Shown: piece by piece, positions 15,282 to 55,971 of the stretch
Position numbering within the stretch: the first letter of the stretch is position 1
Layout of the letters: every line of letters starts with the position of its first letter
Source: Chloroflexota bacterium
GTDB taxonomy: Bacteria > Chloroflexota > Limnocylindria > QHBO01
Direction: 5' to 3'
Length of the DNA: 64,000 bases
NCBI GenBank assembly: GCA_025699005.1
Contig: JAILWI010000002.1
Coordinates: 217,778-281,777 of the forward strand
Position numbers and translations under genes: made by a program
The notes under the pieces: model-generated
Told to the model about the DNA's origin: nothing
The model's input: the letters and a program-made list of their open reading frames with translations, nothing else
Databases searched by the model: none

Positions 15282-15357
15282 TGGAGCGGGAGACGGGGAT
15301 CGAACCCGCGACATGCAGCTTGGAAGGCTGCCGCTCTGCCAGCTGAGCTACTCCCGC
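15282..15357 (-). tRNA. tRNA-Gly (anticodon UCC)
   Basis: Reverse complement reads GCGGGAGTAGCTCAGCTGGCAGAGCGGCAGCCTTCCAAGCTGCATGTCGCGGGTTCGATCCCCGTCTCCCGCTCCA. Clean cloverleaf with 7-bp acceptor stem, anticodon loop CUUCCAA, TTCGATC T-loop, encoded CCA. Confidence 0.85.
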
Positions 15358-20764: not shown

Positions 20765-22783
20765 TCAGCGAGCGCGCTTCGTCGCGCCGTCGGCCCGCGC
20801 CGGCGTGTCGACCCGCTCCGCACCGTTGCCGGACCTCCCCTTCTCGGGAGTCTGCGGCGTGAGCGGCGCCGAGCGCTCGGGCGCCGACCCCTTCTCGGCC
20901 TGGATCACGTGCATGACCGCGTTGATGAGCGAGAGGTGCGTGAACGCCTGCGGGAAGTTGCCGAGATGGCGCCCCGTGTCCGGGTCGAGCTCCTCGCCGT
21001 ACAGGCCCAGGCTGCTGGCGTAGGAGAGGAGCTTTTCGCAGAGGCGCGCCGCGCGGACGACCTCGCCGACCTCGACGAGCGCGGAGACGAGCCAGAAGGA
21101 GCAGATCGTGAAGCTGCCCTCCTCGCCGGACAGGCCGTCATCGGTGAGATCGGTCCGGTAGCGGAGGACGAGGCCGTCGTCGGTGAGCTCGTCGGCGATC
21201 GCGAGAACGGTGCGTCGGATCCGCGGATCCGTGGGCGGAAGGAAGCGGACGAGCGGCATGAGCAGGGCCGACGCGTCGAGCGCATCGGTCTCGTAGTGCT
21301 GGGTGAAGACGCCGCGCTCGTCGACGCCGTTCTCACAGACGTCGGCGTGGATCTCATCGGCGCATGCCTGCCATTGCTCGGCGAGGTCGTGCGCCTCGCG
21401 GATCCGCGCCAGGCGCGCCCCGCGGTCGAGGGCGACCCAGCACATCACCTTCGAGCTCGTGAAGTGCTTCGGCTCGCCGCGGACCTCCCAGATTCCCCGG
21501 TCGGGCTCACGCCAGTGGGCCTGGGCCGCCTCGACCTGCCGCACCATGATCGGCCAGATCCGCTCGTCGAGATGGTCGCGTGACTTCGTGTGGAGGTACA
21601 CGGAATCGAGGACCGCGCCCCACATGTCGTGCTGGCGCTGGCCGTACGCCCCGTTGCCGATGCGGACGGGGCGCGCACCCTCGTAGCCGGAGAGGTGGGG
21701 GAGCTCCTCCTCCTGGAGCGCTTTCTCGCCGTCGACGCCGTACATGATCTGGAGGGCCTCGTCGCGCTCGGCGACATCGGCGATGAAGTGGAGGTAGTCG
21801 TTGGCCTCCCAGTCGAACCCGAGGGTGTAGAGCCCCCACAGCGCGAACGTCGAGTCGCGGATCCAGCTGTAGCGGTAGTCCCAGTTCCGCTCGCCGCCCG
21901 GCGTCTCCGGCAGCGACGTCGTGGCGGCGGCGACGACCGCGCCCGTCGGCGCGTAGGTGAGGCCTTTCAGCGTCAGTGCCGAGCGTTCCAGGTAGGAGCG
22001 CCACGGGTGGTCCGGGAAGGTGCCACGTGCGAGCCAGTGCTGCCAGTGATGGGCCGTCCAGACCAGCCGGCCGTAGGCATCATCGGTCGTCCGTGGCGCG
22101 GCGGCGCCATTCCAGGAGAGCGCGCAGAAGCGGGTCTCGCCCTCCTTGATCAGGGTCCGACCCACGGCCTTGGGTCCCTCGAAGCCGATGTTGATGTCGC
22201 TCGTGAGCACGAGCTCGACGTCGCTGCCGTCCGCCGTGACCGCCCCCTGCTGATACCCGTCCTCGGTGTAGCGCCACGTCCCGAAGCGGCGGCCATAGTC
22301 GAACACGGGCTCGCAATCGAGGATCAGCTGCATCTCGCCGTTCACGCAGCGGACCATTCGCAGCAGGATGTGGCTCGTGTCGTAGTCGGTCGGTGGGCGG
22401 CGCTGGGTCTTCGAGCGTGTGTCACCGTGGCGCCAGGGCCCGATGAGCAGCACGTCACGGACGATGATCCAGCCCTTCGGCGAGCCCCAGGTCGTCTCGA
22501 GCACCATGGTTCCCGGCAGGTAGCGCCGCGCTGCGGGCACCTGGAGGTCGGAGGGCCCGAAGCGGAATCCCCCGGCGTCGCGGTCCAGGATGGCACCGAA
22601 GACGCTCGGGGAGTCCATGCGCGGCAGGCACAGCCACTCGACGTTGCCGCTCGGCGCGACGAGCGCGGTCGTCTCGCAGTCGGAGAGGAATCCGTACTCG
22701 CCGATGGGCGGGAACGGGGAGGTCTTGAACCGGGTCCGCGGCGCAGCATGGTCGCGCCCCTCCGGTCGTCCGTTCGTCGACAT
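20765..22783 (-). CDS. glycoside hydrolase family 15 protein (glucoamylase/trehalase-like, (alpha/alpha)6 barrel with N-terminal beta domain)
   Basis: 672 aa. Collinear with actinobacterial GH15 family proteins (EYGFLSDCETTALV N-terminus, conserved catalytic-region blocks). Confidence 0.85.
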   Translation of the reverse strand: MSTNGRPEGRDHAAPRTRFKTSPFPPIGEYGFLSDCETTALVAPSGNVEWLCLPRMDSPSVFGAILDRDAGGFRFGPSDLQVPAARRYLPGTMVLETTWGSPKGWIIVRDVLLIGPWRHGDTRSKTQRRPPTDYDTSHILLRMVRCVNGEMQLILDCEPVFDYGRRFGTWRYTEDGYQQGAVTADGSDVELVLTSDINIGFEGPKAVGRTLIKEGETRFCALSWNGAAAPRTTDDAYGRLVWTAHHWQHWLARGTFPDHPWRSYLERSALTLKGLTYAPTGAVVAAATTSLPETPGGERNWDYRYSWIRDSTFALWGLYTLGFDWEANDYLHFIADVAERDEALQIMYGVDGEKALQEEELPHLSGYEGARPVRIGNGAYGQRQHDMWGAVLDSVYLHTKSRDHLDERIWPIMVRQVEAAQAHWREPDRGIWEVRGEPKHFTSSKVMCWVALDRGARLARIREAHDLAEQWQACADEIHADVCENGVDERGVFTQHYETDALDASALLMPLVRFLPPTDPRIRRTVLAIADELTDDGLVLRYRTDLTDDGLSGEEGSFTICSFWLVSALVEVGEVVRAARLCEKLLSYASSLGLYGEELDPDTGRHLGNFPQAFTHLSLINAVMHVIQAEKGSAPERSAPLTPQTPEKGRSGNGAERVDTPARADGATKRAR

Positions 22784-22866
22784 GGCAGTCCTCCCACCTG
22801 GGGCCGCACAGTCTCACACGTCCGCGCAACGCGGCCAACCCCCGAAGGTCCCGGTCGGGTCCCGGG

Positions 22867-36914: not shown

Positions 36915-37157
36915 TCAGCCGTCGAACACGGAGCAGCTCATCCGCGGGCTGCGCTCCTCGTCCACTGTCTCGAGGAGGTGGCAGCCAAGGCAATCGTCGA
37001 CGGCCACGATCCCGCCCAGGGGACAGATGACCTCCGACTCGGCCGTCCATCGGAGCTGATGGTGGCACTGCACCCATGAGATGCCCGTCCGCGGCGGGGG
37101 AGGGAGGTGATCCGTTGCAGGCGCCGACGCGCGGCGATCCGTGCGCGCCACGGTCAC
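36915..37157 (-). CDS. small Cys/His-rich hypothetical protein (possible metal-binding)
   Basis: 80 aa ORF whose ATG overlaps the stop of the upstream CBS gene (ATGA). Cys pattern C-x13-C-x10-C-x2-CH. Confidence 0.3.
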   Translation of the reverse strand: MTVARTDRRASAPATDHLPPPPRTGISWVQCHHQLRWTAESEVICPLGGIVAVDDCLGCHLLETVDEERSPRMSCSVFDG

Positions 37158-37570
37158 ATCTCCGCGGCGAGCGCCACGAAGTCCATGGCGGACAGGACGC
37201 CCACGGGCCGGCCGTGGTCGTCGACGGCCACCAGGCGATGGAGGTGCTCGTCGTGCATGAGGCGGGCCGCGTCCCGGAGCGTCGCACCGTCGTCGATGGT
37301 CACCGGCGGCGCGCTCATGACCTCGCCGATCAGGACATGGGGGGCCCGGTGCCGGATGAGCTCCTGGACGGATGGCATGGCGAGGTAGAGGAGATCGGTC
37401 TGGCTGATGACGCCGACGAGGTGGCCCTCGGCGTCGGTGACCGGGAGTCCGGTGATGCGGTGCGTTCGCATCATGTCCTCGGCCTCGGTCAGCGAGGCGT
37501 CGGCGCGGATGCAGATCGGATCGATCGTCATGAGGTCAGCGACCCGCAGGTCGGTGGTGATGAGCGTCAT
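37154..37570 (-). CDS. CBS-pair domain protein (hypoxic-response-protein-like)
   Basis: 138 aa, two CBS motifs. GAGGAG RBS upstream of the ATG at 37570. Confidence 0.8.
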   Translation of the reverse strand: MTLITTDLRVADLMTIDPICIRADASLTEAEDMMRTHRITGLPVTDAEGHLVGVISQTDLLYLAMPSVQELIRHRAPHVLIGEVMSAPPVTIDDGATLRDAARLMHDEHLHRLVAVDDHGRPVGVLSAMDFVALAAEM

Positions 37571-37659
37571 CGGAGACTCCTCGCGCGGTGGATGTATGCC
37601 GCCAGCCTCCTCCGCGGCCGGCCGCGCGGCGATGGCCGTCCGGCCCGATCGCCGATGAC

Positions 37660-37742
37660 GAAGGTCCCGATCGGGCTTCCGGCTTCCCGTCGCGCCGGAG
37701 CGATCGTGACCACGGTCCCGCGAGGTCGGGCCGTTCGGCCGA
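37660..37742. promoter_or_regulatory. two copies of a GGTCCCG-N(4-7)-CGGG(C) palindromic motif in the divergent promoter region between the two CBS genes
   Basis: cgAAGGTCCCGATCGGGCttcc and caCGGTCCCGcgaggTCGGGCc, read directly. Confidence 0.4.
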
Positions 37743-37820
37743 TCCGCAACCCGGCAGGAAGGCGGAACCATGGTGCCGATTCGATCCCATCGGACCGACC
37801 CAGCCCGCAGGAGGTGCACC

Positions 37821-38243
37821 ATGACCATCCAGGCAGCCGAGCTCCGCGTCGGCAACCTCATGACCCTCGATCCGGTCACCGTCGAGCCCGACGCACCGAT
37901 CGCCGAAGCCGAGCAGCTGCTCAAGACGTACCGCGTCTCGGGCCTGCCGGTCGTTCGTCAGCGGGAGGTGGTCGGCGTGATCAGCCAGTCGGACATCATG
38001 GTCGCCCGTGGCAGCGAGCTCATCGGACCTCGCTGGGACCGGGTGCAGGTGCGACACCTCATGACGGCGCCGCCGGTCACGGTCCACGCGACCGCGACGG
38101 TCGAGTGGGCCGCGCGGCTGATGCTTCGCCGCCACATCCACCGCCTGGTCGTCCTCGCCGATGACGGCACGCCGGTCGGCGTCGTGACGCCACTCGACCT
38201 GCTGCGGTCGCTGGTCGGGGACACCGGGGATGTGAGCGCCTAG
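37821..38243 (+). CDS. CBS-pair domain protein
   Basis: 140 aa, two CBS motifs. GGAGG RBS 7 nt upstream of the ATG at 37821. Confidence 0.8.
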   Translation: MTIQAAELRVGNLMTLDPVTVEPDAPIAEAEQLLKTYRVSGLPVVRQREVVGVISQSDIMVARGSELIGPRWDRVQVRHLMTAPPVTVHATATVEWAARLMLRRHIHRLVVLADDGTPVGVVTPLDLLRSLVGDTGDVSA

Positions 38244-39340
38244 CCGAGGAACGGGGCCACGGCGTCCGCGATGACGAGGTCCTCGCGGGCCGCCACCACG
38301 AGCACCGCCGGCGGACCGATGGCCGCGACCCGGTCGGGTCCGCCGGTCGATGCCGACGTCGGCGCGCCGAGGTTCGAGAGGCGCGCCAGGATCTCGTCTC
38401 GCACGCGGGCGGAATGCTCGCCGACGCCGCCGGTGAACACCAGCGCATCCAGCGACGGCAGGGCGGTCGATGCCGCGCCGATGGCTGCCGCCGCACGTCG
38501 TGCGTACATCGCGATCACGAGGGCCGCCTGCGCGTCGCCGTCCGCGGAGCGCTGCTCGATTTCTCGCAGGCTCGGTGTGCCCGCGAGCGCCGCCAGGCCC
38601 GAGTGATGGGCGAGGCCATCGGCGAGCGTCGCGGGCCGTTCTCCGTTTCGTAGCAGATGGAGCAGGATGCCGGGGTCGATCGCCCCCGCGCGCGTCCCCA
38701 TCATCAGCCCGTCGAGGGGCGTGAATCCCATGCTCGTGTCGACCGAGCGGCCACCGTCGACGGCGGTGACGGAGCTGCCCGAGCCGAGATGCGCGACCAC
38801 GAGGCGGATCGACTCGGGAGCGCGGCCCAGCAGCTCGGCGCTGCGACGTGCGGACCATGCGACGGAGAGGCCGTGGAATCCGTAACGCCGGAGCTTCCAG
38901 CGGTCCACCCATGCCGCGGGCAGGGGATAGCGCCACGCCTCCTCGGGGAGCGTCTCGTGGAAGGCCGTGTCGAAGCATGCGACATGCGGGACATCCGGCA
39001 GAGCTCGTCGTCCCGCTCGCATCAGGGCCGCAGCGCGGCGGTTGTGGAGCGGCGCGAGCGGGTCCAGGTCCTCGATCACGGCGACGACCTCGTTCGTCAC
39101 CTGCACCGGGCGGCGGAGCCGATCGCTCCCGTGGACCACGCGGTAGCCGACGGCGTCCGGCGGGGCGCTGGCGCGGGCGACGACCGACGTCACCAGCCCG
39201 TCCGGATCCGTGGCGGAGTCCGCCGCCGGCCAGTCGGCGCTCGTCGTGTCCGCCTCCCTCGACCCCTCGGTGACCAGGCTCGTCTTCAGGGAGCTCGAGC
39301 CGGCGTTGAGGACCAGGATGCGCAACGCGTCCCGGCTCAC
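38240..39340 (-). CDS. ackA: acetate kinase
   Basis: [13 protein letters not shown]-terminus, HLGSGSS and acetate-kinase C-terminal blocks. GTG start overlaps the xfp stop (GTGA). Confidence 0.85.
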
Positions 39341-41745
39341 GCCGGCCAGGTCCAGTCGCGGACCTCGGGGATGTCCTCGCCGTGCTCGCGGGTCCACGCC
39401 CGGGCGGCAAGCCGTCGATCGGCCATCTCCTGGCGCACGTGGCCTGCCGTGACGGCGAGGCCGGGCACGCGGTCGATGACGTCCATCACCAGGTGGTATC
39501 GGTCGAGGTCGTTGAGCATGACCATGTCGAACGGCGTCGTCGTCGTGCCCTCCTCCTTGTAGCCGCGCACGTGGAGGTTGTCGTGGTTCGTGCGCCGATA
39601 CGTCAGCCGGTGAATGAGCCACGGGTATCCGTGGTAGGCGAAGATGATCGGCCGGTCGGCGGTGAACAGCGCATCGAAGTCGGCATCGGGGAGGCCGTGC
39701 GGATGCTCGCGCTCATCCTGCAGGCGCATGAGGTCCACGACGTTCACGACGCGGACCTTCAGATCGGGAAGGTGGCGTCGCAGCAGATCGGCGGCTGCGA
39801 GCGTCTCGATCGTCGGCACGTCGCCCGCGCACCCGAGGACGACGTCGGGCTCCTCGTCGCCGGCGCTGCCGGCCCATTCCCAGATGCCGATACCGCGCGT
39901 GCAGTGCATCACGGCCTCGTCCATGGTCAGCCACTGCGGGGAGGGCTGCTTGCCGGCGACGATGACGTTCACGTAGTTCCGGCTCCGCAGTGCGTGGTCG
40001 CTGACGCTGAGCAGCGTGTTGGCATCCGGCGGCAGGTAGACGCGGATGATCTCGGCCTTCTTGTTCACGACGTGGTCGATGAACCCCGGGTCCTGGTGGC
40101 TGAAGCCGTTGTGGTCCTGCCGCCAGACGTGGCTGCTCAGCAGGTAGTTCAGCGAGGCGATCGGGCGCCGCCACGGGATCTCGCGGGTCGTCTTCAGCCA
40201 CTTGGCGTGCTGGTTGAACATCGAGTCGACGATGTGGATGAAGGCCTCGTAGCAGCTGAAGAGTCCGTGACGGCCGGTGAGCAGGTATCCCTCGAGCCAG
40301 CCCTGGCACGTGTGCTCTGACAGGATCTCGAGCACGCGACCGTCGGGCGCCAGGTGCTCGTCGGTCGGCAGGCGTTCGGCCATCCATGCCTTGTCGGTCA
40401 CGTCGAACACGGCCGAGAGGCGGTTCGAGGCCGTCTCGTCCGGTCCGAACAGCCGGAACGTCTCCGGGTTGAGGCGGATCACGTCCCGCACGAGCTCCCC
40501 GAGCACGCGCGTCGCTTCGGCCACGACGGCGCCCGGCCGGGGTACGTTGACGGCGTAGTCCCGGAAGTCGGGAAGCCGCAGGTCACGGAGGAGGAGTCCG
40601 CCGTTCGCGTGCGGATTCGCGCTCATCCGCCGCGGCCCGGCAGGGGCCAGCTCGGCGACCTCCCGTCGAAGGACGCCGGCGCCGTCGAACAGCTCCTCGG
40701 GACGGTAGCTTCGCAGCCACCGCTCGAGCATCTCGAGGTGGGCGGCGTCGTCGCGGACGTCGGACATCGGCACCTGGTGCGCGCGCCAGGTGCCCTCGAC
40801 CGGGACGCCGTCGACGGCCGCGGGACCGGTCCAGCCCTTGGGAGTGTGGAGGACGATCATCGGCCACCGTGGGCGCCCGGGCTCGGGGTCGCCGGCCGCA
40901 CGGTTCCGCGCCCGCGTCTGGATCTCGGCGATCGTGTCGAGGCAGGCATCCAGGACGTCGGCCATCTGCCGATGGACATCGGCCGGATCGTCGCCGGCCA
41001 CCACGTGCACCTCGTGCCCGAACCCGGTCAGCATAGCCGTGAGCTCGTCCTCGGGGATCCGTGCCAGCACGCTCGGGTTCGCGATCTTGTAGCCGTTGAG
41101 GTGCAGGATCGGCAGCACGGCACCATCGCGCGTCGGATCCAGCCACTTGTTCGCATGCCAGCTCGCGGCCAGCGGCCCGGTCTCGGCCTCGCCGTCGCCG
41201 ATCACGCAGGCGACGAGCAGGTCCGGGTTGTCGAATGCGGCTCCATAGGCGTGGGACAGGGCGTAGCCGAGCTCGCCGCCCTCGTGAATCGAGCCGGGCG
41301 TCTCGGGGGCGACGTGGCTCGGGATGCCCCCGGGGAAGCTGAACTGGCGGAACAGGGCGCGCAGGCCGTCCAGGTCGCGGCCGATGGACGGGTAGACCTC
41401 GGTATACGTCCCCTCGAGGTAGGCGTTCGCGACCAGTCCGGGTCCGCCATGGCCCGGCCCGGTGATGTTGATGACGTCGAGGTCGCGCTCGCGGATGACG
41501 CGGTTGAGGTGGGCGTACACCAGGTTGAGCCCGGGAACGGTTCCGAAGTGGCCGAGGAGGCGTGGCTTGATGTGCTCGGGTCGAAGGGGCTCGCGCAGCA
41601 GCGGGTTGTCGAGCAGGTAGATCTGGCCCACCGAGAGGTAGTTCGCGGCACGCCAGTACGCGTCGAGACGGGTGAGCTCATCGCGTGTCGCGCCCGCGGT
41701 GCGCGCCGCCTCGGTCGCCGCGGGCATGCTCGGTGGTCGCGTCAC
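39337..41745 (-). CDS. xfp: xylulose-5-phosphate/fructose-6-phosphate phosphoketolase
   Basis: 802 aa. [16 protein letters not shown]-terminal block, TPP-binding GPGHG and EGGELGY motifs characteristic of XFP. Confidence 0.9.
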
Positions 41746-41760
41746 GGTACGAGCGTACCG
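41745..41760. promoter_or_regulatory. inverted repeat CGGTACG-AG-CGTACCG at the 5' end of xfp
   Basis: 7-bp perfect arms read directly. Confidence 0.35.
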
Positions 41761-41793
41761 CGGGCGGGAAGGGGCACCCTCATCCGCGTCCGG

Positions 41794-42531
41794 TCAGCGA
41801 TGCATCGCTCGCGGGTGCTCACGGGCCGAGACCGACGCGGCGCCGGGCTCGCGCTCGCGACTGTCGGCGGGCTCGAACTTCGAGTCGTCGAGGTCCCAGG
41901 CGAGCGTGCTGCGCACCTGGGCGACGCCGTCCACCAGGCCGACGAGCTTCTCGATGATCGTGGCCGTGGACCGACGGTCGACGCGACCGCCGATGTCGAC
42001 CACGCCCTCGCTGACGGAGATGCGGAACAGCGTCGGATCCAGCCACATCGTGTGACGCAGGATCTCCTCCCGGATGACGTGCTCGATCTCGGAATCCATG
42101 CGCAGGTACGCGCGCACGAGATCCGCCCGCGTCACGATTCCCACGACGCGACCGCCGTCGACGGCGGGCAGCCGGTTCACATGTCGCTCGATCATCAGGT
42201 TCGCCGCCTCGCGGATCGGACGGTCGGCGTCGATGGTCACGGCCGGCGTGCTCATCGCGTGGCCGGCGGTGAGGGCCGCTCGGCGACGTTCGTGCTCGGG
42301 ATCGGGATCGGCGCCGAAGACCCACTCGAGTGGGTGGCGACGGGCGACCGTCGGTCCTGCCTCCTTGGCCAGCAGATCGGCCTCGGAGATGATGCCGACG
42401 CAGGCATCGCTGGAGTCGACCACGGGAGCTCCCGAGATCCGCCGCTCGGTGAGGAGCGTGGCCACGTCCCGCAGTGTCGTGTCGGTGCGAACCGTTGCCA
42501 CATTGCTGGTCATCACGTCTCGGACCTTCAT
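41794..42531 (-). CDS. CBS-pair plus BON domain protein
   Basis: Two CBS motifs followed by a BON-like C-terminal segment (VSEGVVDIGGRVDRRSTATIIEKLV). ATG overlaps the stop of the upstream USP gene (ATGA). Confidence 0.75.
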   Translation of the reverse strand: MKVRDVMTSNVATVRTDTTLRDVATLLTERRISGAPVVDSSDACVGIISEADLLAKEAGPTVARRHPLEWVFGADPDPEHERRRAALTAGHAMSTPAVTIDADRPIREAANLMIERHVNRLPAVDGGRVVGIVTRADLVRAYLRMDSEIEHVIREEILRHTMWLDPTLFRISVSEGVVDIGGRVDRRSTATIIEKLVGLVDGVAQVRSTLAWDLDDSKFEPADSREREPGAASVSAREHPRAMHR

Positions 42532-43529
42532 CGGGATATCCCTTCGTGCTGCGACTGGAGTGGGGTGGTCGGCGACGTGACCGGTGTGGGCCGCATCACC
42601 AGGACGGAGCAATCAGCGTGGGTGAGCACGTTGCGAGCAACGCTTCCGAGGAGCAGCCGCTCGAGGCCACGCAGGCCGCGGGAGCTCACGACGATGAGGT
42701 CCGCGTTGCATGCGTCAGCGGTGGCGAGGATCTCGTGCGCTGCGTCGCCGGCCGGCGCGTGGGTCGTGACGGTGGTTCCGAGGCCGCTGAACGCCGCGGT
42801 CATCGCGTCGAGCCCGGCGCGCTGATGCCGCTGGAGGTCCTCGTGGAGCTGCGCCAGCCGTTGGTCACCCACCGTGTACAGGCCGGTGTAGAGCGAGAAG
42901 AGGGACGGAGCGGGCACAAGCACCGAGACGATGTCGGTCGGCACGTCACGCGCGAAGCTCCACGAGTCGAGCTGCGCGGGGATGGCTCCTGCGCTCGATG
43001 AACCGTCGGTCGCCACGAGCACGCGCCCGATCGCCGGACGACGAGCGACGAGCACGGCGCAGGGCGCCTCGGTGGCCACTTCCGCGGCGACCGAGCCGAG
43101 GAGGAACGCCCGCAGAGGGCTGTTGCCTCGCGATCCGACGACGATCAGATCCGCGCCGATGCGCTCGGCCGTCTGGAGAATCGCCGTCGCCGGTCGTCCG
43201 CGCACGACGTGGTACTCGACGCTCAAGCCGCGGTCGACGAGGGGGTCAGCCGCCTCACGGAGCTCTTCACTGAGCTCGTCTCGGTACTGGTCCTCGGCAT
43301 CTCCGATCCAGTCCATCGTCGCGCCCACGCCGCCGGTCCAGTCGGCGGGAACGTAGTACGCCGTCACCAGATGTACCGTGCTGCCCGCCGGCCAGCGCGC
43401 AGACGCGACGAGGTCACGGGCGGTCAACGACCGGGGAGATCCCTCGATCCCGAGCAGGATGGTGAGGCCGCGCGGTTTCTCGCCGGCGCCATCGCCCGGA
43501 ACGGTGGGGGCACGGGGTGTGGTGGCCAT
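42528..43529 (-). CDS. tandem universal stress protein (two UspA domains)
   Basis: Two USP domains each with the ATP-binding G-x2-G-x9-G(S) motif (VVGSRGNSPLRAFLLGSVA, VVSSRGLRGLERLLLGSVA). Confidence 0.8.
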   Translation of the reverse strand: MATTPRAPTVPGDGAGEKPRGLTILLGIEGSPRSLTARDLVASARWPAGSTVHLVTAYYVPADWTGGVGATMDWIGDAEDQYRDELSEELREAADPLVDRGLSVEYHVVRGRPATAILQTAERIGADLIVVGSRGNSPLRAFLLGSVAAEVATEAPCAVLVARRPAIGRVLVATDGSSSAGAIPAQLDSWSFARDVPTDIVSVLVPAPSLFSLYTGLYTVGDQRLAQLHEDLQRHQRAGLDAMTAAFSGLGTTVTTHAPAGDAAHEILATADACNADLIVVSSRGLRGLERLLLGSVARNVLTHADCSVLVMRPTPVTSPTTPLQSQHEGISR

Positions 43530-43601
43530 GGCACCAGCCTGCCCGCGGAGGGGGCGCCGAGCATCTGCCGAACGGCCCGTCCGGATGGCCCAAGCGGCCC
43601 G

Positions 43602-46241
43602 CTAAAGGGGTCCCAGGCGAGCGCGCACCAACCGTGTGACGGCGAGACCGGCCGGGAAGCCGATCACCGCGCCGGCCAGCACGATGCCCCATCCCGCGAG
43701 ACCCAGCGGTGCGACGCCGAAGAGACCCGCGAGCGGCGAGTACAGCACCACCGCCTGCAGGAGCAGGCTGCCGGCCACCGCCACGACGAGCCACCGGTTC
43801 GCGAAGAGGGACAGTCCCTCGTGCACGCGGATCACCGCGAGACGCAGGTACTCCTGCACCACGAGCGCGGTGAACGTCAGCGTCTGGGCGGTCTCCAGGT
43901 CGAAGAGGGCCAGGCCGATAAAGAACGTGCCCACCACGATCGTCGCGATCACCGCGCCGACACCGGCGACGAGCGCGAGCATCGCCCGACCGATCACCGG
44001 GCCGTGACGTGGCGGTCGCGCCATGAGCCCGGGAGCCGGTGGGTCGACCGAGAGCGCGATCGCCGGCCCGCTGTCCGTCACGAGGTTGACCCACAGGATC
44101 TGGATGGCGGTCACCGGCAGGTAGCCGAACAGCGAGCCGATGAGGACGACGAGGACCTCGGCCACGTTTCCGGTGAGCAGGTAGTTGAGGAACTTCCTGA
44201 TGTTCGCCGCGATGCGCCGGCCTTCCTCGATGGCCGCCACGATCGTCGCGAAGTTGTCGTCGAGCAGCACCATGTCGGACGCGTCGCGCGCGACGTCGGT
44301 GCCGCGCACGCCCATGGCGATGCCCACGTCGGCGCCCTTCAGTGCCGGCGCGTCGTTGACTCCGTCGCCGGTCATGACCACGACGTGGCCGCGCTGCCGG
44401 AACGCGTCGAGGATGCGCAGCTTGTGGCCGGGCTCGACCCGCGCGAAGATCTCGCCGCGCTCGACCACGTCGTCGTCGGTCAGCGCCTCGAGCTCGCGCC
44501 CCTCGATGGCCGTCGCGGCCAGGCCGATCTCGCGGCCGACGGCCTCGGCCGTTCGCGGGTTGTCGCCGGTGATCATCACCACCCGCACGCCGGCATCGGC
44601 CGTGGCCCGGAGCGCGGGCGCGGCGGCCTCGCGGGGCGGATCGGCCATGCCGGCGAGGCCGTAGAACGTCAGGTCCGACTCGTCGTCGTCGCGGACGGCC
44701 CCGTCGTCGGTACGGCCGGCGAGGGCCAGCACGCGCAGCGCCTCGTCGGCGAGCGCGTCGACGGCTCGGCCGATCTCCTCCCGGTCGGCGTCGGTGATCG
44801 GTCGCTCGCCCCCGTCGGCGTCGAGGTGCGTGCAGCGCGGCAGGATGACCTCAGGGGCTCCCTTGACGAGCACGAGCCGCCGCTCACGATCGTGCGCCAC
44901 GACGCTCATCCGCCGCCGCGCGGACGAGAAGGGATGCTCGGCGGTCCGCTGCCATGCGGTCGGGTCGATGCCGCTCTTCAGCGCGCCGACGAGCAGGGCG
45001 ACCTCGGTCGGGTCGCCGCGGAGCGTGCCGTCGGCATCGCGCGCCGCGTTGTTGCAGACGGCGCCCGCCAGCAGTGCCAGGTTGTCGCGCTGGTCTGTCG
45101 GCTGACCATCGAGCGTGACATCTCCGTCGGTGGCCTCGGGCCCTCCGCTCACGGAGAGCACGCGTCCGCGCCACCAGAGGCGTCGCAGGCTCATGCGGCC
45201 CTCGGTGATCGTGCCGGTCTTGTCGGTGCAGATCAGGTCGGCGGCTCCGACGATCTCGACGACCGGCAGGGAGCGGACGAGGGAACGCCGGTCCAGCATG
45301 CGGCGGGTCCCGAACGCGAGAGCCAGGGTGAGGACGACGGGAAGGCCCTCGGGGATCGCGGCGACCGCCAGGGCGACGGCGGTCACGAACGTCTCGAGCG
45401 GCGGGCGCCCGCCGATCGTCAGCTGGAGGATGGCAATGAGGACGATGAGGATCCCGACCACGGCGGTGACGCGCCGCCCGAGCTCCCCGATCTCGCGCTG
45501 GAACGGCGTCGGTCCCTCCCGGACCGACTGGACCGCGCGCGCGATGCTGCCGATCTCGGTCGCCATGCCGGTGGCGGTGACCACGAACCGACCCCGGCCG
45601 CTCGCCACCGAGGTGCCGAAGAAGAGCATGTCCGCTCGCTCGGCCAGCGGCGTGTCGGCGGCCATCGCCTCCGCGTGCTTGGTCACCGGGAGGCTCTCGC
45701 CCGTCAGCGATGCCTCATCGACACGGAGGTCGTTGGCGACGAGGACCCGCCCGTCGGCGGGGATGCGATCTCCCTCCTCGACGAGGACGACGTCACCCAT
45801 GACGAGCTCGGCGGCATCGACCTGCGCCGGGCCGCCGTCGCGCAGCACGCGGACCCATGCGGTCTCGAGACGCCGCAGGGCCTCGATGCCCCGCTGCGCA
45901 CGGTAGTTCTGCACGAACCCGAGGGCGCCGTTGAGCAGAACGATGACAGCGATGAGGATGGCGTCGCCCCAGCGCGCGTCGGCCGGCTCGGCCACGCTGA
46001 CCGCGATGAGCACGCCGATGGCTCCCAGGAGGACGAGCACGAGAGGATTCCTGACCTCGTCGAGCACGAGATGCCAGGCGGGAATCCCGGGCTGCTGCTG
46101 GAGCTCGTTCCTCCCGTCCCGCGCGAGTCGCCGTGCGGCCTCGTCGGACGCGAGCCCGTCCCGCCCGCTCCCGACGGCACCCAGCACATCGCCGGCGTCC
46201 CGGGCATGAGGGTTGCTCAGGCGCCGTTCCATAGCACCCAC
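43602..46241 (-). CDS. cation-transporting P2-type ATPase (CtpF/Ca2+-ATPase-like)
   Basis: 879 aa. Cation_ATPase_[25 protein letters not shown], 10 TM helices. Confidence 0.9.
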   Translation of the reverse strand: MGAMERRLSNPHARDAGDVLGAVGSGRDGLASDEAARRLARDGRNELQQQPGIPAWHLVLDEVRNPLVLVLLGAIGVLIAVSVAEPADARWGDAILIAVIVLLNGALGFVQNYRAQRGIEALRRLETAWVRVLRDGGPAQVDAAELVMGDVVLVEEGDRIPADGRVLVANDLRVDEASLTGESLPVTKHAEAMAADTPLAERADMLFFGTSVASGRGRFVVTATGMATEIGSIARAVQSVREGPTPFQREIGELGRRVTAVVGILIVLIAILQLTIGGRPPLETFVTAVALAVAAIPEGLPVVLTLALAFGTRRMLDRRSLVRSLPVVEIVGAADLICTDKTGTITEGRMSLRRLWWRGRVLSVSGGPEATDGDVTLDGQPTDQRDNLALLAGAVCNNAARDADGTLRGDPTEVALLVGALKSGIDPTAWQRTAEHPFSSARRRMSVVAHDRERRLVLVKGAPEVILPRCTHLDADGGERPITDADREEIGRAVDALADEALRVLALAGRTDDGAVRDDDESDLTFYGLAGMADPPREAAAPALRATADAGVRVVMITGDNPRTAEAVGREIGLAATAIEGRELEALTDDDVVERGEIFARVEPGHKLRILDAFRQRGHVVVMTGDGVNDAPALKGADVGIAMGVRGTDVARDASDMVLLDDNFATIVAAIEEGRRIAANIRKFLNYLLTGNVAEVLVVLIGSLFGYLPVTAIQILWVNLVTDSGPAIALSVDPPAPGLMARPPRHGPVIGRAMLALVAGVGAVIATIVVGTFFIGLALFDLETAQTLTFTALVVQEYLRLAVIRVHEGLSLFANRWLVVAVAGSLLLQAVVLYSPLAGLFGVAPLGLAGWGIVLAGAVIGFPAGLAVTRLVRARLGPL

Positions 46242-47251
46242 AGCATCACGAAGTAGGCGCCGAGGAGCAGGATCGCGTCCGGCTCACCGCGCTGGAAGCG
46301 CGTGCGCTCACCGTGCACGACGCCGCCGAGCGCGATCGACATCAGGAGCAGGGCCCCCAGGCCGGCCACCATCGCCTGCGATGTCGAGACGGCGGCCAGA
46401 ATCGGTCCCGAGGTCGTGGCGGCATCGGCGGCGAAGACGACCGTCGTGTTGAGGGCGTTGCTGCCGAACAGGTTGCCGACGGCGAGGTCGTAGGCGCCGA
46501 TACGGATCGCGGCAAGGGACGTGGCGAGCTCCGGCAGCGAGGTGGCGAGGGCGAGCAGCGTCACGCCCACGAAGGTCTGGGCAACGCCGAGCTCGTCCGC
46601 GATGGCATGCGCGCTGAGCGCCATGAGCGGGGCAGCCAGGAGGACGACGAGGCCGGCCCCACCGAAGACCAGGGCGTTCCTCCGCAACGGACGAGCGGCG
46701 GTCCCGGGGTCGGCCGGGATCGGCACGATCAGCTCACCGTCCGGAGCCGCCGGCCCCCGCTCCGTCTGGGCCCGACGGATCCACGCGGTGGCGAGCACCC
46801 AGCCGACGACCAGGACGATCGTCTCGAGCCCGATCCATCCGATCGCGAAGCGGACCGGCGTCACGATCCCGAGCAGAAGGATCGCGGTGAGACCCATCGC
46901 AATCGATGCCACGCGGGCGTGCCCGAGACCGATCGCCGGCCACACGCGACCTCGGTGCAGCAGGTCGATGATGGCGAGGATCGCCATGTTCGCCATGCTG
47001 CTGCCGAGAAGGTCGCCGATGGCCAGGTCGGGAGCCCCCGCCATCGCGGCGGTGACATCGGTCGCGATCTCCGGCAGCGATGTCGCGCCCGCCAGCAGCA
47101 GCATGCCGACGAACAGGCCCCCGAGCCCCGACTGGACCGCGATCGCGTCGCCGGTCCTCGCCAGGATGATGCCGGAGACGACCACCACGGCGGCGGCGGT
47201 CGCGAAGATGGCGGTCAGCAGGACGAGGGGCAGGTCGCCGAAGAGCGGCAC
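46217..47251 (-). CDS. Ca2+/cation antiporter (CaCA family, YrbG/NCKX-like sodium:calcium exchanger)
   Basis: Duplicated alpha-repeat motifs GATSLPEIATDV and ATSLPELATSLAA. The N-terminal ~85 codons of the track ORF are not membrane-like. Start is approximate (GTG about 47251). Confidence 0.7.
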   Translation of the reverse strand: MPLFGDLPLVLLTAIFATAAAVVVVSGIILARTGDAIAVQSGLGGLFVGMLLLAGATSLPEIATDVTAAMAGAPDLAIGDLLGSSMANMAILAIIDLLHRGRVWPAIGLGHARVASIAMGLTAILLLGIVTPVRFAIGWIGLETIVLVVGWVLATAWIRRAQTERGPAAPDGELIVPIPADPGTAARPLRRNALVFGGAGLVVLLAAPLMALSAHAIADELGVAQTFVGVTLLALATSLPELATSLAAIRIGAYDLAVGNLFGSNALNTTVVFAADAATTSGPILAAVSTSQAMVAGLGALLLMSIALGGVVHGERTRFQRGEPDAILLLGAYFVMLWVLWNGA

Positions 47252-47342
47252 GATGCTGTTCCCGTGCGTTGCGGGGAAGGTACGTGATTGGATGCCGTTC
47301 GCGCGAGGGGCCGCGCGTCGGGCACGGGCGCAGCTCCGGGCA

Positions 47343-47660
47343 TCACGGCTCCACGGAGCTCCGCTCCGCGGAACCGGGCACCGTTCCGCTGCCGACGAGG
47401 AGCATCCGCGTCCCGTACTCGTCGTCGAGACGATCGACGATCCGGATCCGCGCGTCGACGTGACCGCCATCGGCCGTCGTTGCCTCCATCCGGCGGATGG
47501 CGCCACTGGGCGTCATCTCATCCGGCGCGATGGCGCATGCGAGGTCGACGGTCCAGTCGGCATCCGGCGCCTCGCCCCAGAGGCGCAGCGTGGCCGATCG
47601 ACGGTGCATCCGATGTCCGTCGATCTCGACTCGGTCGAGGTGGATCGATCGTTCGTTCAT
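47343..47660 (-). CDS. hypothetical protein (105 aa)
   Basis: ORF with coding-like composition. No family recognised. Confidence 0.35.
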   Translation of the reverse strand: MNERSIHLDRVEIDGHRMHRRSATLRLWGEAPDADWTVDLACAIAPDEMTPSGAIRRMEATTADGGHVDARIRIVDRLDDEYGTRMLLVGSGTVPGSAERSSVEP

Positions 47661-47911
47661 GGACCATTCCTTCCCGGATGCGACGACGGCCGGCGCTGTC
47701 GCCGGCCGTCGTGCGTGGGTGCCTCGTCAGCCGAGCACGTAGCGCAGAGCGGGAGTTCGCTTCACGTCCGATACCAGCGTGCGCGGTCGGAACGTTACGG
47801 ACACCTGCCGGCGGCCCCGAACTCTGCGGGACAGATGGCCCCCTCCGTGCGGGACCTTGAGCCCTCGCCGCCGTCGTCATCTGCGATCACCGTCGAGTCG
47901 TGCGGAGAGCA

Positions 47912-48448
47912 ATGAACGCCCAGACGACCGAAGCCCTCGCCCATCCACGCGTCGCCGACCTCGCCGACGATGGCGAGGCCTTCGTGCCGCTCGCGGTGAC
48001 CGGTCGCCTGCATGGCGACCCCGACCGCGTGGCAGCGATGCTCGATGCCGGCAGCGCTTCGTGGCTTCGCGGCATGCGCGCGCGCCCCGCGGCCGGGGGG
48101 ATGCGGCGCTACGAGGTCGATCTGCGCCTGCGCGTCGGAGTCGGACAGGCGGCCGTCAGCACGTTCCGCAAGGCCGCGTACCTCGACCTCGGTCCGGCCG
48201 TGGAGACGCCCGACGGGTGGGAGCTGGACATCAGCTGGCGTGCCGCATCCGCCGCTCCACTCTTCCCGGTGTTCGCGGGATGCCTGGTCATCGGGCCGCG
48301 TGACCTGCGCATCGAGGGCCTCTACGCGCCGCCCGGAGGCCCCGTCGGCCGAGCCGCGGATCGGCTGCTGCTCCACATCGCGGCGAACGCCACGGCGCGC
48401 TGGCTGCTCGCGGAGATCGACCGCGCCGCGCTCGGAGCCGCGGGCTAG
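47912..48448 (+). CDS. hypothetical protein (178 aa)
   Basis: ORF convergent with the DosR-like regulator. AAGGTCCCG motif copy about 55 bp upstream. No family recognised. Confidence 0.4.
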   Translation: MNAQTTEALAHPRVADLADDGEAFVPLAVTGRLHGDPDRVAAMLDAGSASWLRGMRARPAAGGMRRYEVDLRLRVGVGQAAVSTFRKAAYLDLGPAVETPDGWELDISWRAASAAPLFPVFAGCLVIGPRDLRIEGLYAPPGGPVGRAADRLLLHIAANATARWLLAEIDRAALGAAG

Positions 48449-49122
48449 GTGCCGGCCGGGGGCTCGCCGACGCGACGCTTCGCCACGAAGGCGGCGGCCT
48501 GCGTTCGCCGCTGGAGGTTGAGCTTCGACAGGATGCTGCTGACGTAGTTCTTCACCGTCTTGTCGGAGAGGAACACCTCGCCGGCGATCTCCTTGTTCGT
48601 CTTTCCCTCCGCCACCAGCAGGAGGATGCGGCGCTCCTGCTCGGTGAGCTCCGACAGCTCGTCGGTGACCCCGCCGCTCGCGGCCTGTCGGACCCGCTGG
48701 AGCACCTTTTCGGTCACCGCCGGGTCGAGGAGGGAGTCGCCGCGCCCCACCGACTCGATCGCGGCCACCAGGTCGCGTCCGCGGACCTGCTTGAGGAGGT
48801 AGCCCGAGGCGCCCGCGATGATCGCCGAAAGCACGGCCTCTTCGTCGGGGTAGCTCGTGAGCATGACCACCCGCGTCTCGGGCCGAGCCGCTCGGATCTC
48901 GCGGCACGCCTCGATGCCCGATCCATCCGGCAGGCGGACGTCCATGACCACCACGTCCGGCTCGAAGCGCGCGGCCTGGGCGATTGCCTCGCGCACGGAG
49001 CCGGCGTGGGCCACGACGTCGATTCCGGCGCGACGATTGAGCAGCGCGACGAGTCCCTGCCGCACCACCTCGTGGTCGTCGACGACGAGCAGGCGCAGGG
49101 GGGCGTTCGGTGCGTCAGTCAT
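48445..49122 (-). CDS. dosR: NarL/LuxR-family response regulator, DevR/DosR-like
   Basis: Receiver plus LuxR HTH. Blocks LLVVDDHEVVRQGL, MDVRLPDGSGIEACR, MLTSY, IIAGASGYLLK, LTEQERRILLL, KTNKEIA, LSDKTVKNYVSSILSKLNLQRRTQAAAFV closely parallel M. tuberculosis DevR. Confidence 0.8.
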   Translation of the reverse strand: MTDAPNAPLRLLVVDDHEVVRQGLVALLNRRAGIDVVAHAGSVREAIAQAARFEPDVVVMDVRLPDGSGIEACREIRAARPETRVVMLTSYPDEEAVLSAIIAGASGYLLKQVRGRDLVAAIESVGRGDSLLDPAVTEKVLQRVRQAASGGVTDELSELTEQERRILLLVAEGKTNKEIAGEVFLSDKTVKNYVSSILSKLNLQRRTQAAAFVAKRRVGEPPAGT

Positions 49123-50626
49123 GCTCTGGCTCCGGGCTTCTCGGGCGGGTCTCCGGTACGGACATGATGATACGGGTGCCGTGGGTCGGCGAGCTCTCGA
49201 CGCCGAAGCGGCCGCCGAGCGCCTCGATGCGAGCGCGCATGTTCGCGAGGCCCTGGTGGCCCTGCCGCGAATGCTCCGCGGCGTCGAAGCCGCGCCCATC
49301 GTCGGTGAGCACCAGCCGCAGATCGGCACCGTCGCGGTCGAGCTCGATGCGAGCCTGGGTGGCGCCGGCATGGCGCGCGACGTTGCTGAGCCCCTCGCGC
49401 GCCACGGCAAGGAGATCGGCGACCGTCTCGATCGGCAGGGCGAGCTCGGACTCGTCCACGCCGACCCGGACCTCGACGGTGACTCCGCTGCTCCGGCGGA
49501 GCTCACCACCGAGCGCGTGCAGGCCCTCCGTGATCCCGCCGGCCTCGAGCAGCACGGGGCGGAGGCCGAAGATGAAGTTCCGGATGTCGCGGATCACGGC
49601 ATGCAGCGCGTCGATCGCATCGTCGACGCGTCGCGCGGCCGCCTCGGGCTCGCCCGGAATCATCTCCGGGACGTCGTCGAGCGCCAGCGTCTGGGCGTAG
49701 ATCGCCTGGATGACGCTGTCGTGGAGATCGCGGCTGATGCGGTCACGCTCATCGACCACGGCCAGGCGCCCGACCTGGTCGTGGAGGCGGGCGTTCTCGA
49801 TGGCGATTCCCGCGTGCAGGGCGAACATCTCGACCAGCGCCTGGTCGTCCGCGCTGAACTCCGCGGCGCCGATCTTGTTCGTCAGGTAGAGACGCCCGAC
49901 GGTGTTGCCGCCGACCGTGATGGGCATGCCGAGGAACGAGCGCATCTCGGGATGGTGGGCCGGGAAGCCGAAGCGCTCCGGATGTGCGCCGATGTCCGGG
50001 ATGCGGTAGGTGCGCGACTCACGGATGATGAGGCCCAGCAGCCCGTGGCCGCGCGGCAGGTCACCGATCCGAGCCCGGTCCTCGCCGCTGATGCCGCTCG
50101 TGATGAACTGCTCGATCCCACCCTGCGAATCCACGATCCCGATGGCGGCGTACTGGGCCGGCGCCAGGTCACGCACGCGATCGACGATGACCTGGAGCAC
50201 GCGGGCGACGTCGAGCACGCCGCCGATGCCGCGGACCGCCTGGTCGAGCGCGACGAGCTGTCGGTCCGTGCGCTCCGCGGCCGCCCGGGTGCGCGCGCTG
50301 GCGATGGCGAGCTCGAGCATCTCGGCAAAGGCTCGGGCGTCATGCGGATCTCCGCCGATGCGGGCCCATCCCACCGGTCGAGCCTCGCCCGGCATCCGCA
50401 GCGCGATCTCGGCCCCTTCGATGCCACCACCCACGTCGAGCTCGAGGTCGGGGAGGGGAGGCGCGGTGGCTCGCAGGCGCCCGACGGTGAGCCCCATCGA
50501 CGCCGCCGCCGCCCCGATCGCAGCACTGAGATCCGTCATGGCGTCCGCCGAGGCATCCGCACGCCATCGTTCCATGGCCTCGAGCACCGGACGGATCGAG
50601 GCGACTCGTCGAATCTCGGGTTGCAT
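49115..50626 (-). CDS. dosS: GAF-domain sensor histidine kinase (HisKA_3 / HATPase_c), DosS/DosT-like
   Basis: GAF domain closely resembling DevS GAF-B (HPERFGFPAHHPEMRSFLGMPI...GRLYLTNK). H-box ERDRISRDLHDSVIQ. HATPase G-boxes. Overlaps the regulator by 8 bp. Confidence 0.8.
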   Translation of the reverse strand: MQPEIRRVASIRPVLEAMERWRADASADAMTDLSAAIGAAAASMGLTVGRLRATAPPLPDLELDVGGGIEGAEIALRMPGEARPVGWARIGGDPHDARAFAEMLELAIASARTRAAAERTDRQLVALDQAVRGIGGVLDVARVLQVIVDRVRDLAPAQYAAIGIVDSQGGIEQFITSGISGEDRARIGDLPRGHGLLGLIIRESRTYRIPDIGAHPERFGFPAHHPEMRSFLGMPITVGGNTVGRLYLTNKIGAAEFSADDQALVEMFALHAGIAIENARLHDQVGRLAVVDERDRISRDLHDSVIQAIYAQTLALDDVPEMIPGEPEAAARRVDDAIDALHAVIRDIRNFIFGLRPVLLEAGGITEGLHALGGELRRSSGVTVEVRVGVDESELALPIETVADLLAVAREGLSNVARHAGATQARIELDRDGADLRLVLTDDGRGFDAAEHSRQGHQGLANMRARIEALGGRFGVESSPTHGTRIIMSVPETRPRSPEPEHD

Positions 50627-50676: not shown

Positions 50677-50688
50677 CCTATCGAACAC

Positions 50689-50699
<11 letters not shown>
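50677..50699. promoter_or_regulatory. SOS (LexA/Cheo-type) box TCGAAC-ACTT-GTTCGA within a 22-bp palindrome CTATCGAACACTTGTTCGATAG, between the kinase gene and lhr
   Basis: Read directly. Perfect match to the Gram-positive/mycobacterial SOS box consensus TCGAAC-N4-GTTCGA. Overlaps the annotated TTG start of lhr. Confidence 0.45.
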
Positions 50700-55194
<4,495 letters not shown>

Positions 55195-55971
55195 CCGATC
55201 CGGCGCGATCGTTCGCGCCCACTCGCGGATGAGCTCCCAGTCGCGGAAGTCACCGTCGGGCGAGCGGACCATCCGCGTGATGATTCGCTCGGCGAAGTCC
55301 AGGTTCTCGCCATCCACGCGCCCGGCGAAGACCCGGTGGTCGCGTGCCCCCAGCTCCCGTGCCCACCGGACGGCGTCGGAGGGCGGCTCGTCGGGCGTCA
55401 ACGGCGTTCCGATCGGCCCGCTGGAGAACAGCCAGACCGGACGCTGCCGCAGCGCGGTCCGGTGGCGCTCGCCGAAGCGGCGCGCCGACGGCATCCAGCG
55501 TCCGCCGTACACCGCGCTGCCGAGGACCACGGCGTCGTACGCACTGCAGTCGCGCACCAGGTCCGGCTCGGCGATGTCCACGTCGTTCCCGGCGCGTCGC
55601 AGCTCGTCGGCGATGGCCTCCGCGATCTCGCGGGTCGCCCCGTGCTTCGAGGCGGTCGAAACGAGGATGTGCATCTGACGGTCACGGTGCGGGTTGGGCG
55701 CCGAGCATGCATCGGGCGTCGGCGCCGGGTCGTGGGCCGGTCGTCACGATTCCGCGGGTCGGTCGGCCCGCAGCGGGCGGCGCCAGCGCGGATCGATCGG
55801 TCCGAATGGCCTGCGGCAAGAGGTCCCTCGGCATCTGGCCGCGATGGCGCGCCGGGTCGACGATGCGGATCGGGAGCGGGTGAGGCCCTGGAGCTTCGGA
55901 GCCCGAAGCGCAGGTGCCCATGCAGCTTCGCCCGCTCCCGGCTACCAGCCTCTGCCTCTGAGGAGCTCGCG

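Follow-up and report, generated by a model that had tools for sequence, protein, structure and literature searches.

The window, a 64-kb stretch of DNA that was analyzed over its whole length, has a base composition of approximately 71% GC. Two genes for stand-alone CBS-pair proteins face away from each other across a spacer of 250 bp (37571-37820). These are CBS(-) on the minus strand (37154-37570; 138 amino acids; Pfam CBS E = 2.4e-31) and CBS(+) on the plus strand (37821-38243; 140 amino acids; Pfam CBS E = 2.3e-31). A 'Chloroflexi bacterium' MAG encodes a protein that is 100% identical to the CBS(+) product, whose relatives carry the label Candidatus Limnocylindria. A scan of genome contigs with the CBS protein as query yielded distant relatives only. 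Orthology of the CBS proteins to Rv2626c/Hrp1 was also considered. Rv2626c was absent from the PDB sequence matches, and we therefore claim a shared architecture alone for these proteins.

The gene picture of the original prediction was borne out by Pfam. On the minus strand a GH15 gene (20765-22783) was recognized, followed at higher coordinates by genes for acetate kinase, phosphoketolase, a CBS-BON protein and a tandem USP (together 38240-43529), a P-type ATPase (43602-46241) and a Na/Ca exchanger (46217-47506). The genes between 38240 and 43529 lie on a common strand and overlap or are separated by short gaps; thus, they likely form one operon. A hypothetical gene with the start codon GTG at 47900 is located on the plus strand (47900-48448). 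A flavodoxin gene (55123-55674, minus strand) and a second tandem USP gene (55973-56931, plus strand) were also identified by Pfam. Outside this region a tRNA gene was found at 15285-15357 on the minus strand (Rfam RF00005, 68 bits).

Next to the hypothetical gene the minus strand carries a DevR/DosR-like response regulator of the NarL type (48445-49122; Pfam and structure matches) and a DevS/DosT-like sensor kinase with the domain order GAF-HisKA_3-HATPase (49115-50626; Pfam). The best solved-structure match of the regulator is M. tuberculosis DevR (3c3w, E = 4.5e-63), followed by VraR (3.6e-44), and NarL was matched at 2e-32. The recognition helix DKTVKNYVSS aligns with EKTVKNYVSR of DevR; consequently, K179, K182 and N183 are conserved. 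In Limnocylindria metagenomes the regulator has many homologues with 83-90% identity, several of which JGI annotated automatically as DevR. The GAF domain of the kinase (residues 139-284), the only one recognizable by Pfam, is closest to the haem-binding GAF-A domain of DevS (E = 3e-35), and the histidine in its 'HHPEM' motif aligns with that in 'YHPPM' of DevS. The short spacer upstream of the kinase-regulator operon contains a 24-bp AT-rich, near-perfect palindrome CCTATCGAACACTTGTTCGATAGG (50677-50700) which overlaps the predicted start of a plus-strand gene for a protein of 1555 amino acids. A further regulator might use this palindrome as its operator. In the related locus L093 a gene for an Rrf2 regulator is situated directly upstream of the kinase gene.

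Four boxes in the spacer between the CBS genes

The spacer had drawn attention through two strings with the half-sites GTCCC and TCGGG, both of which indeed lie between CBS(-) and CBS(+). The original prediction regarded them as copies of a palindromic operator that differs from the canonical Dev box by its swapped half-sites. We compared the spacer with the sites of OsdR (SCO0204) from S. coelicolor, the Streptomyces orthologue of DevR, for which the consensus AGGGCCGATCGGCCCT was reported (Urem et al. 2016, PMC5069765). The OsdR sites include AGGGACCTTCGGCCCC and GGGGCCGAACGGCCGT (PMC5069765). A scan matrix was built solely from these published S. coelicolor sites.

The spacer contains four boxes of 14 bp with the half-sites in canonical order, GGGMC-N4-GKCCC. 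In front of each of the two divergent CBS genes, a strong, proximal box (P) lies on the side of the gene, and a weaker, distal one (D) is located 22 bp further upstream. The P box of CBS(+), GGGCCGTTCGGCCG (37728-37741, plus strand), is the primary box and scored 14.2 bits with the OsdR matrix, which places it in the top 0.002% of all 14-mers of the window. It matches the OsdR consensus and is thus a canonical-order box of the DevR/OsdR type. The secondary D box of the same gene, GTGACCACGGTCCC (37706-37719, plus strand), starts 22 bp upstream of P, scored 3.4 bits (top 0.23%) and includes the GGTCCC of the second string. The two boxes are separated by an 8-nt spacer, and 24 nt downstream of P a predicted -10 hexamer AACCAT follows (37766-37771, plus strand), whose nAnnnT pattern is kept in orthologues. 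Transcription of CBS(+) is predicted to start near 37778.

The CBS(-) promoter has the mirrored layout. On the minus strand the D box GGGACCTTCGTCAT (37655-37668; 5.1 bits, top 0.1%) is followed after 8 nt by the P box GGGCCGGACGGCCA (37633-37646; 10.5 bits), the start of which lies 22 bp further downstream. The predicted -10 hexamer GAGGCT (37604-37609) lies 23 nt past the P box, and the corresponding transcription start is predicted near 37597. The D box GGGACCTTCGTCAT is the reverse complement of the first of the two strings, ATGACGAAGGTCCC. In an independent repeat search the mirror layout of both promoters appeared as a 40-nt inverted repeat (37634-37673 and 37701-37740).

The first string (copy A) may also be read as a plus-strand duplicate of the second (copy B), that is, as a direct repeat D1 with 71% identity. 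This reading was set aside in favour of the minus-strand reading. Copy A belongs to CBS(-) since the CBS(-) orthologue in locus L007 keeps the exact layout away from any CBS(+) gene. In this locus the CBS(-) orthologue lies in another context, behind acetate kinase, and is preceded by GGGACCTTCGGCAC, 8 nt, GGGCCGGAAGGCTG, 23 nt and GATCCT.

Canonical-order boxes (GGGCCGTTCGGCCG, GTGACCACGGTCCC, GGGACCTTCGTCAT and GGGCCGGACGGCCA) thus occupy exactly the positions for which swapped half-sites had been proposed. The swapped appearance arises when the right half of one box is read together with the left half, including its flank, of the box that follows. In the CBS(+) promoter GGTCCCG-cgagg-TCGGGCC consists of the right half of D and the left flank and half of P. 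Similarly, the 8-mer AAGGTCCC is the reverse complement of GGGACCTT, which represents the left half and the centre of a box.

We also counted the proposed words in the window. AAGGTCCC occurs four times (22845+, 37661+, 47858- and 4560-), three times in intergenic DNA. The near-identical copies that had been postulated outside the spacer exist with regard to this 8-mer; those at 43603 and 55815 have GGTCCC alone in common with it. GGTCCCG was found 28 times versus 34.5 expected and is not enriched. The gapped form GGTCCCG-N0-8-TCGGG was observed three times versus 0.82 expected, a number that was reached by 6 of 100 shuffles. Consequently, the word itself is not special but a GC-rich word that is equally common inside genes.

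Conservation of the boxes in orthologous promoters

Orthologous loci were gathered by protein look-ups and a metagenome scan. For CBS(+) this resulted in 18 upstream regions (protein identity 57-78%), 16 of which were combined in alignment A2. The CBS(+) orthologues keep a TGAC and, 21-23 bp downstream, the block GGGCC(G/A)TTCGGCC(G). TGAC and GCC-TTCGGCC are invariant across the 16 aligned regions. The P box was found in all 18 regions and is nearly invariant; an nAnnnT hexamer resembling a -10 element follows 23-24 nt past it in 18 of 18. Orthologues also have a second box, 21-23 bp upstream of the first. Every half-site retains its third G and its C, including those that read GTGAC. In contrast to the invariant TGAC, the D box as a whole reached at least 2 bits in only 4 of the 18 regions, and the TGAC could have another role. 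The GTCCC of the original motif definition falls between the conserved blocks. It belongs to the right half of D, which varies as GNCCC (GTCCC, GGCCC, GACCC), and is the least conserved part of the element.

The conserved blocks might also be taken for the -35 (GTGAC) and -10 (GGGCCGTT or CGTTC) elements of a promoter for a sigma factor of the ECF or SigB/SigF type. The distance between GTGAC and GGGCC varies by one base either way (21-23), as is usual for promoter spacers, and the element always points toward the gene. On the other hand, the distance of 20-21 nt between TGAC and CGTT exceeds the spacing of ECF promoters, the palindrome that makes up the proximal block matches OsdR sites, and the other promoters of the window carry GGGAC or GGGCC instead of GTGAC as the upstream block. 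The reading of GTGAC...GGGCCGTT as an ECF/SigB-like promoter was rejected on account of the separate -10 element conserved further downstream. This element, present 23-24 nt downstream in 18 of 18 regions, together with the OsdR-like palindrome renders the participation of an alternative sigma factor very unlikely.

A structured RNA, such as a leader, an attenuator or a terminator hairpin, was considered as well, since the region contains local inverted repeats (such as GCCCGATCG / CGATCGGGC) and a GGCC-GTTC-GGCC mini-hairpin. Folding resulted in z-scores of 0.19, -0.02, -0.84 and 0.44, however, and the alignment fold showed four invariant pairs only and no covariation. Neither an Rfam match nor a T-tract was found. 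An origin as GC-rich words generated by chance is excluded by the conservation together with the composite statistics given below. Taken together, explanations by RNA structure or chance appear extremely unlikely.

The copy proposed upstream of the GH15 gene (22843) corresponds to a box-like sequence GGGACCTTCGGGGG (22839-22852, minus strand) which scored 0.8 bits and is not accompanied by a second box. A strongly conserved extended -10 element GTGTGAGACTGT (22810-22821, minus strand) is found 23 nt downstream of it; the element is invariant in all six orthologues and directly precedes position 1501 in L088-L092. In the window, the GH15 promoter contains an insertion of approximately 23 nt with two GGGAC words that is missing from the other five promoters (L088-L092). 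Thus, the GH15 copy, whose segment is lacking in the five orthologous promoters, is doubtful.

These observations bear on the question whether swapped half-sites, GTCCC-N-TCGGG, are recognized as one unit distinct from the Dev box. GGTCCCG-N-TCGGG is indeed present at 22847, 37663 and 37714, and the upstream region of the hypothetical gene orthologue in L007 contains a perfect GGGTCCCGA-GCCG-TCGGGACCC. Neither a fixed spacing nor conserved arms were found for such a unit. The gap between GTCCC and TCGGG varies (2, 2 and 6 nt), and 6% of shuffles contain as many as the three occurrences (0.82 expected). Orthologues conserve the flanking canonical halves but not GTCCC, and the copy at 22847 is absent from the five GH15 orthologues. 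Every instance is accounted for by the inner half-sites of two adjoining canonical boxes and their flanks (GTCCC-GA and TC-GGGMC). The L007 locus demonstrates how the pattern arises: the hypothetical gene orthologue is preceded by three tandem boxes, and the perfect palindrome is formed by inner halves of adjoining boxes. We therefore assign hardly any likelihood to a swapped unit. The case illustrates that two adjoining palindromic boxes can pass for one new swapped motif.

Predicted promoters with the same layout in the window and in relatives

Single boxes are not enriched in the window. With the OsdR matrix 21 matches of at least 7 bits were found versus 19 expected in this 71% GC sequence, and several of the top matches are intragenic, such as that at 28015 within a gene for an ABC ATPase. 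With a GC-rich motif in a genome of 71% GC, the case for the boxes rests on geometry, position and conservation. The box-like sequence GGGACCTTCAGCCC at 4553-4566 (plus strand) lies inside the coding region 4087-4845 (minus strand). It possesses neither a partner box nor a -10 hexamer and is therefore probably a chance intragenic copy.

In order to search for the complete arrangement, composite criteria were used: a box according to the OsdR matrix had to be accompanied by a second one (at least 2 bits) 21-23 bp upstream and by an nAnnnT hexamer 23-24 nt downstream. This larger element, which overlaps the coordinates of the originally proposed word, is far more frequent than expected by chance, with five matches in the window versus 0.08. 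Among 300 sequences simulated with a first-order Markov model none contained five, and the highest number was two. This test is not fully blind because the geometry had been read from the CBS(+) orthologues and the window beforehand, while the matrix is independent. The five composite promoters belong to CBS(+), CBS(-), the tandem USP gene, the flavodoxin gene and the hypothetical gene. All five are intergenic and oriented toward the gene, with the start codon 0-43 nt from the predicted transcription start. Their second boxes, located 22-23 bp upstream in five of five promoters, belong to the top 0.01-0.23% of the 14-mers of the window. P boxes with 10.2-14.2 bits (OsdR matrix) correspond to the top 0.002-0.016%.

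The USP promoter on the minus strand consists of the D box GGGCCGCTTGGGCC (43600 to 43587; 5.2 bits with the OsdR matrix), the P box GGGCCGTTCGGCAG 8 nt past it (43578 to 43565; 10.2 bits with the OsdR matrix) and a predicted -10 hexamer CAGGCT (43536-43541), which was located by the composite scan. With a matrix trained on orthologues excluding the window the P box reached 18 bits. The copy that the original prediction had placed at 43603, GGGACCCC, is not a box but lies just upstream of the real USP boxes (43565-43600). In the promoter of the hypothetical gene on the plus strand the D box GGGACAGATGGCCC (47828-47841) and the P box GGGACCTTGAGCCC (47851-47864) scored 7.6 and 5.9 bits as a tandem pair, and the predicted -10 hexamer CACCGT (47888-47893) lies 23 nt downstream of P. 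Here, the copy proposed at 47849 proved to be real and is identical with the P box. The predicted transcription starts coincide with the first base of the start codon in both cases, the A of the ATG at 43529 and the GTG at 47900, respectively; the mRNAs of the USP and the hypothetical gene are therefore predicted to be leaderless.

The flavodoxin promoter is likewise located on the minus strand. The D box GGGCCGACCGACCC (55769 to 55756) and, after an 8-nt spacer, the P box GTGACGACCGGCCC (55747 to 55734) scored 11.2 and 11.9 bits as a tandem pair. A predicted -10 hexamer CATGCT (55709 to 55704) follows 24 nt downstream of P, and transcription is predicted to start near 55697, which leaves 23 nt to the start codon (55674). 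A further box AGGCCATTCGGACC (55799-55812, minus strand; 10.9 bits with the orthologue-trained matrix) starts 43 bp upstream of the flavodoxin D box. A copy at 55815 had been postulated for the second USP gene. Its GGTCCC is not a box; it adjoins this third box, and the strong pair lies at 55734-55769. The boxes point to the flavodoxin gene instead, and a plus-strand composite for the second USP gene (55973+) was found neither by eye nor by composite scans.

In relatives the composite precedes genes for USP, flavodoxin, pyruvate:ferredoxin oxidoreductase (PFOR) and many CBS proteins. It was observed upstream of the USP orthologue in L007, of flavodoxin in L053 and of PFOR in L042 and L066. In L004-L006 it also precedes genes that encode a DUF8173 protein and a small membrane protein. 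The CBS(-), USP and hypothetical gene orthologues in L007 keep the layout in a different gene context; the USP orthologue shows the same tandem layout and is also predicted to be leaderless. In L094 four strong boxes precede a CBS gene beside the regulator orthologue.

Several other features were noticed in the related loci. In more distant lineages the sequence GGGAC-N4-CGACC, 8 nt, GGGCCGTTCGGCCC is located beside the start of a divergent PFOR-like gene with the 14+8+14 geometry kept (L071 302(-), L083 166(-), L084 334(-), L085 360(-), L049 3676(-) and L045 201(-)). A GC-rich hairpin-like element GGTGGGYGCCGGAGGGGACGCCCGGCGCCCACC recurs near box clusters (L066 downstream of 3904(-), L071 downstream of 260(-) and L042 upstream of 3882(+)); a comparison of this element with Rfam gave no match. 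Genes for a NiFe hydrogenase and its maturation are found close to the cluster of CBS, phosphoketolase and flavodoxin genes in L004 (19924-20181) and L005 (17853-20423). They recall M. smegmatis, which possesses a DosR-controlled hydrogenase.

Proposed regulation and comparison with known systems

We consider it quite probable that the spacer between the CBS genes contains two back-to-back activator-dependent promoters, each with a pair of DevR/DosR (OsdR)-type boxes, and that the neighbouring DevR-like regulator is the protein which binds them. The view that the element recurs within a regulon, and that this regulon is linked to the DosR-like two-component system nearby, is supported. The term 'operator' used for it is not, since the box is centred near -43.5 relative to the predicted start, a position that speaks for an activator site as in the case of DevR.

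The boxes could instead be bound by another regulator of the NarL/LuxR family encoded elsewhere, or could mediate repression rather than activation. Only 64 kb of the genome are in view, and in L005 and L006 a gene for a GerE-glyoxalase protein lies divergent to CBS(+). Furthermore, unlike devR and osdR with their clear autoregulatory sites, the kinase-regulator operon is preceded by a weak box only (50698-50711, 4.0 bits), and a second box is lacking. In L093 (2229-2360) a box GGGCCATCTGTCCC, which may be autoregulatory, is located upstream of the Rrf2-kinase-regulator operon; in the window, the reverse complement of this 14-mer forms the D box of the hypothetical gene (47828-47841). Against another binding protein, the adjoining regulator has the recognition helix of DevR, the five target promoters lie within approximately 12 kb of it, and the four strong boxes in L094 are found beside the regulator orthologue. 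Against repression, a box centre near -43.5 from the predicted start in a promoter devoid of a recognizable -35 element is the layout of a DevR activator site. We therefore regard a different regulator or a repressing function as unlikely.

Starting from the sequences, with their conservation, constant geometry and excess over chance, and from the homology found for regulator and kinase, we infer binding and activation, the start sites and the signal as follows. The haem-GAF kinase would sense O2, NO, CO or the redox state and phosphorylate the DevR-like regulator. Its sites would be 14-bp palindromes GGGMC-N4-GKCCC, or 18 bp including the flanks TC...GA, with the primary box nearest to the gene and centred approximately 43.5 bp before the predicted start and a degenerate secondary box 22 bp, or two helical turns, further upstream. 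Regulator dimers would occupy the P box (approximately -43.5), then load cooperatively onto the D box (approximately -65.5) and recruit RNA polymerase as in the DosR-RNAP complex (PMC13486717). Activation of the class II type by the phosphorylated regulator is most likely. The same layout would drive the tandem USP operon, probably including CBS-BON, phosphoketolase and acetate kinase, as well as flavodoxin and the hypothetical gene, and would define a hypoxia/dormancy-type regulon in a genome of Candidatus Limnocylindria (Chloroflexota).

Paired DosR/OsdR-type sites in front of stress genes look like a mycobacterium-style hypoxia/dormancy regulon outside the Actinobacteria. Chances are even that Limnocylindria, uncultured soil Chloroflexota, run a DevRS-type oxygen/redox dormancy regulon with the tandem-box logic of mycobacteria and streptomycetes. 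Partly via leaderless transcripts, it would be connected to fermentative ATP formation by phosphoketolase and acetate kinase as well as to electron carriers of low potential, namely flavodoxin and, in relatives, PFOR; genes for a NiFe hydrogenase are found nearby in L004 and L005. If so, the DosR programme would be an ancient or horizontally shared persistence module across phyla and not an actinobacterial speciality, and the DosR/OsdR dormancy paradigm would be extended beyond the Actinobacteria. For an abundant uncultured soil lineage this provides a concrete regulon model with box coordinates, predicted starts and target genes. A search for DosR in Chloroflexi or Limnocylindria found no linking paper in the searchable literature. 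The kind of site and the promoter architecture are already known, and the JGI auto-annotation already names DevR; novelty, as judged from the searchable literature, lies in the host phylum and in the content of the regulon.

Among known systems, NarL-type 7-2-7 heptamer sites are related insofar as a dimer of the same regulator superfamily binds an inverted repeat. Their sequence (TACYYMT) and geometry differ from those of the boxes described here, and NarL is a much weaker match to the regulator.

The resemblance to DevR (DosR) of M. tuberculosis is closer. All DevR promoters contain at least two tandem boxes, a conserved primary box and degenerate secondary ones, which are in phase on the DNA helix at a distance of about 21 bp between centres (Chauhan et al. 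2011, PMC3177182). The tgs1 boxes are located at -42.5 and -63.5, G5 and C7 of each half-site are essential, and the CBS gene Rv2626c has a two-box DevR promoter (PMC3177182). Like Dev boxes, the boxes of the window are palindromes that keep the essential G and C in each half, and they occur as tandems of one conserved and one degenerate box two helical turns apart, with the proximal box near -43 relative to the starts, which are predicted here. Divergent gene pairs with a common box cluster are found in both systems, and USP and stand-alone CBS-pair proteins are among the targets. The DNA-contact residues of the regulator are conserved, and both kinases have a haem-GAF domain. In contrast to the GGGAC/GTCCC core of DevR sites, the strongest sites of the window have a GGGCC/GGCCC core. 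The kinase has one recognizable GAF domain, whereas DevS has two, and the sequences of the CBS proteins are not closely related to that of Rv2626c.

The OsdR sites of S. coelicolor share a GC-rich core GGGCCG-NN-CGGCCC that is nearly identical to that of the window, and variants such as GGGACCTTCGG... are found there, too. The OsdR targets also include USP genes clustered around the regulator, with sites approximately 50-100 bp before the start codons. In the window, by comparison, the centre of the box is almost always TT, and the flanks are TC/GA instead of the A/T of OsdR sites. The host is a MAG of Chloroflexota (Ca. Limnocylindria) and not an actinomycete, and its regulon differs from that of OsdR in having phosphoketolase, acetate kinase and flavodoxin, and PFOR in relatives.
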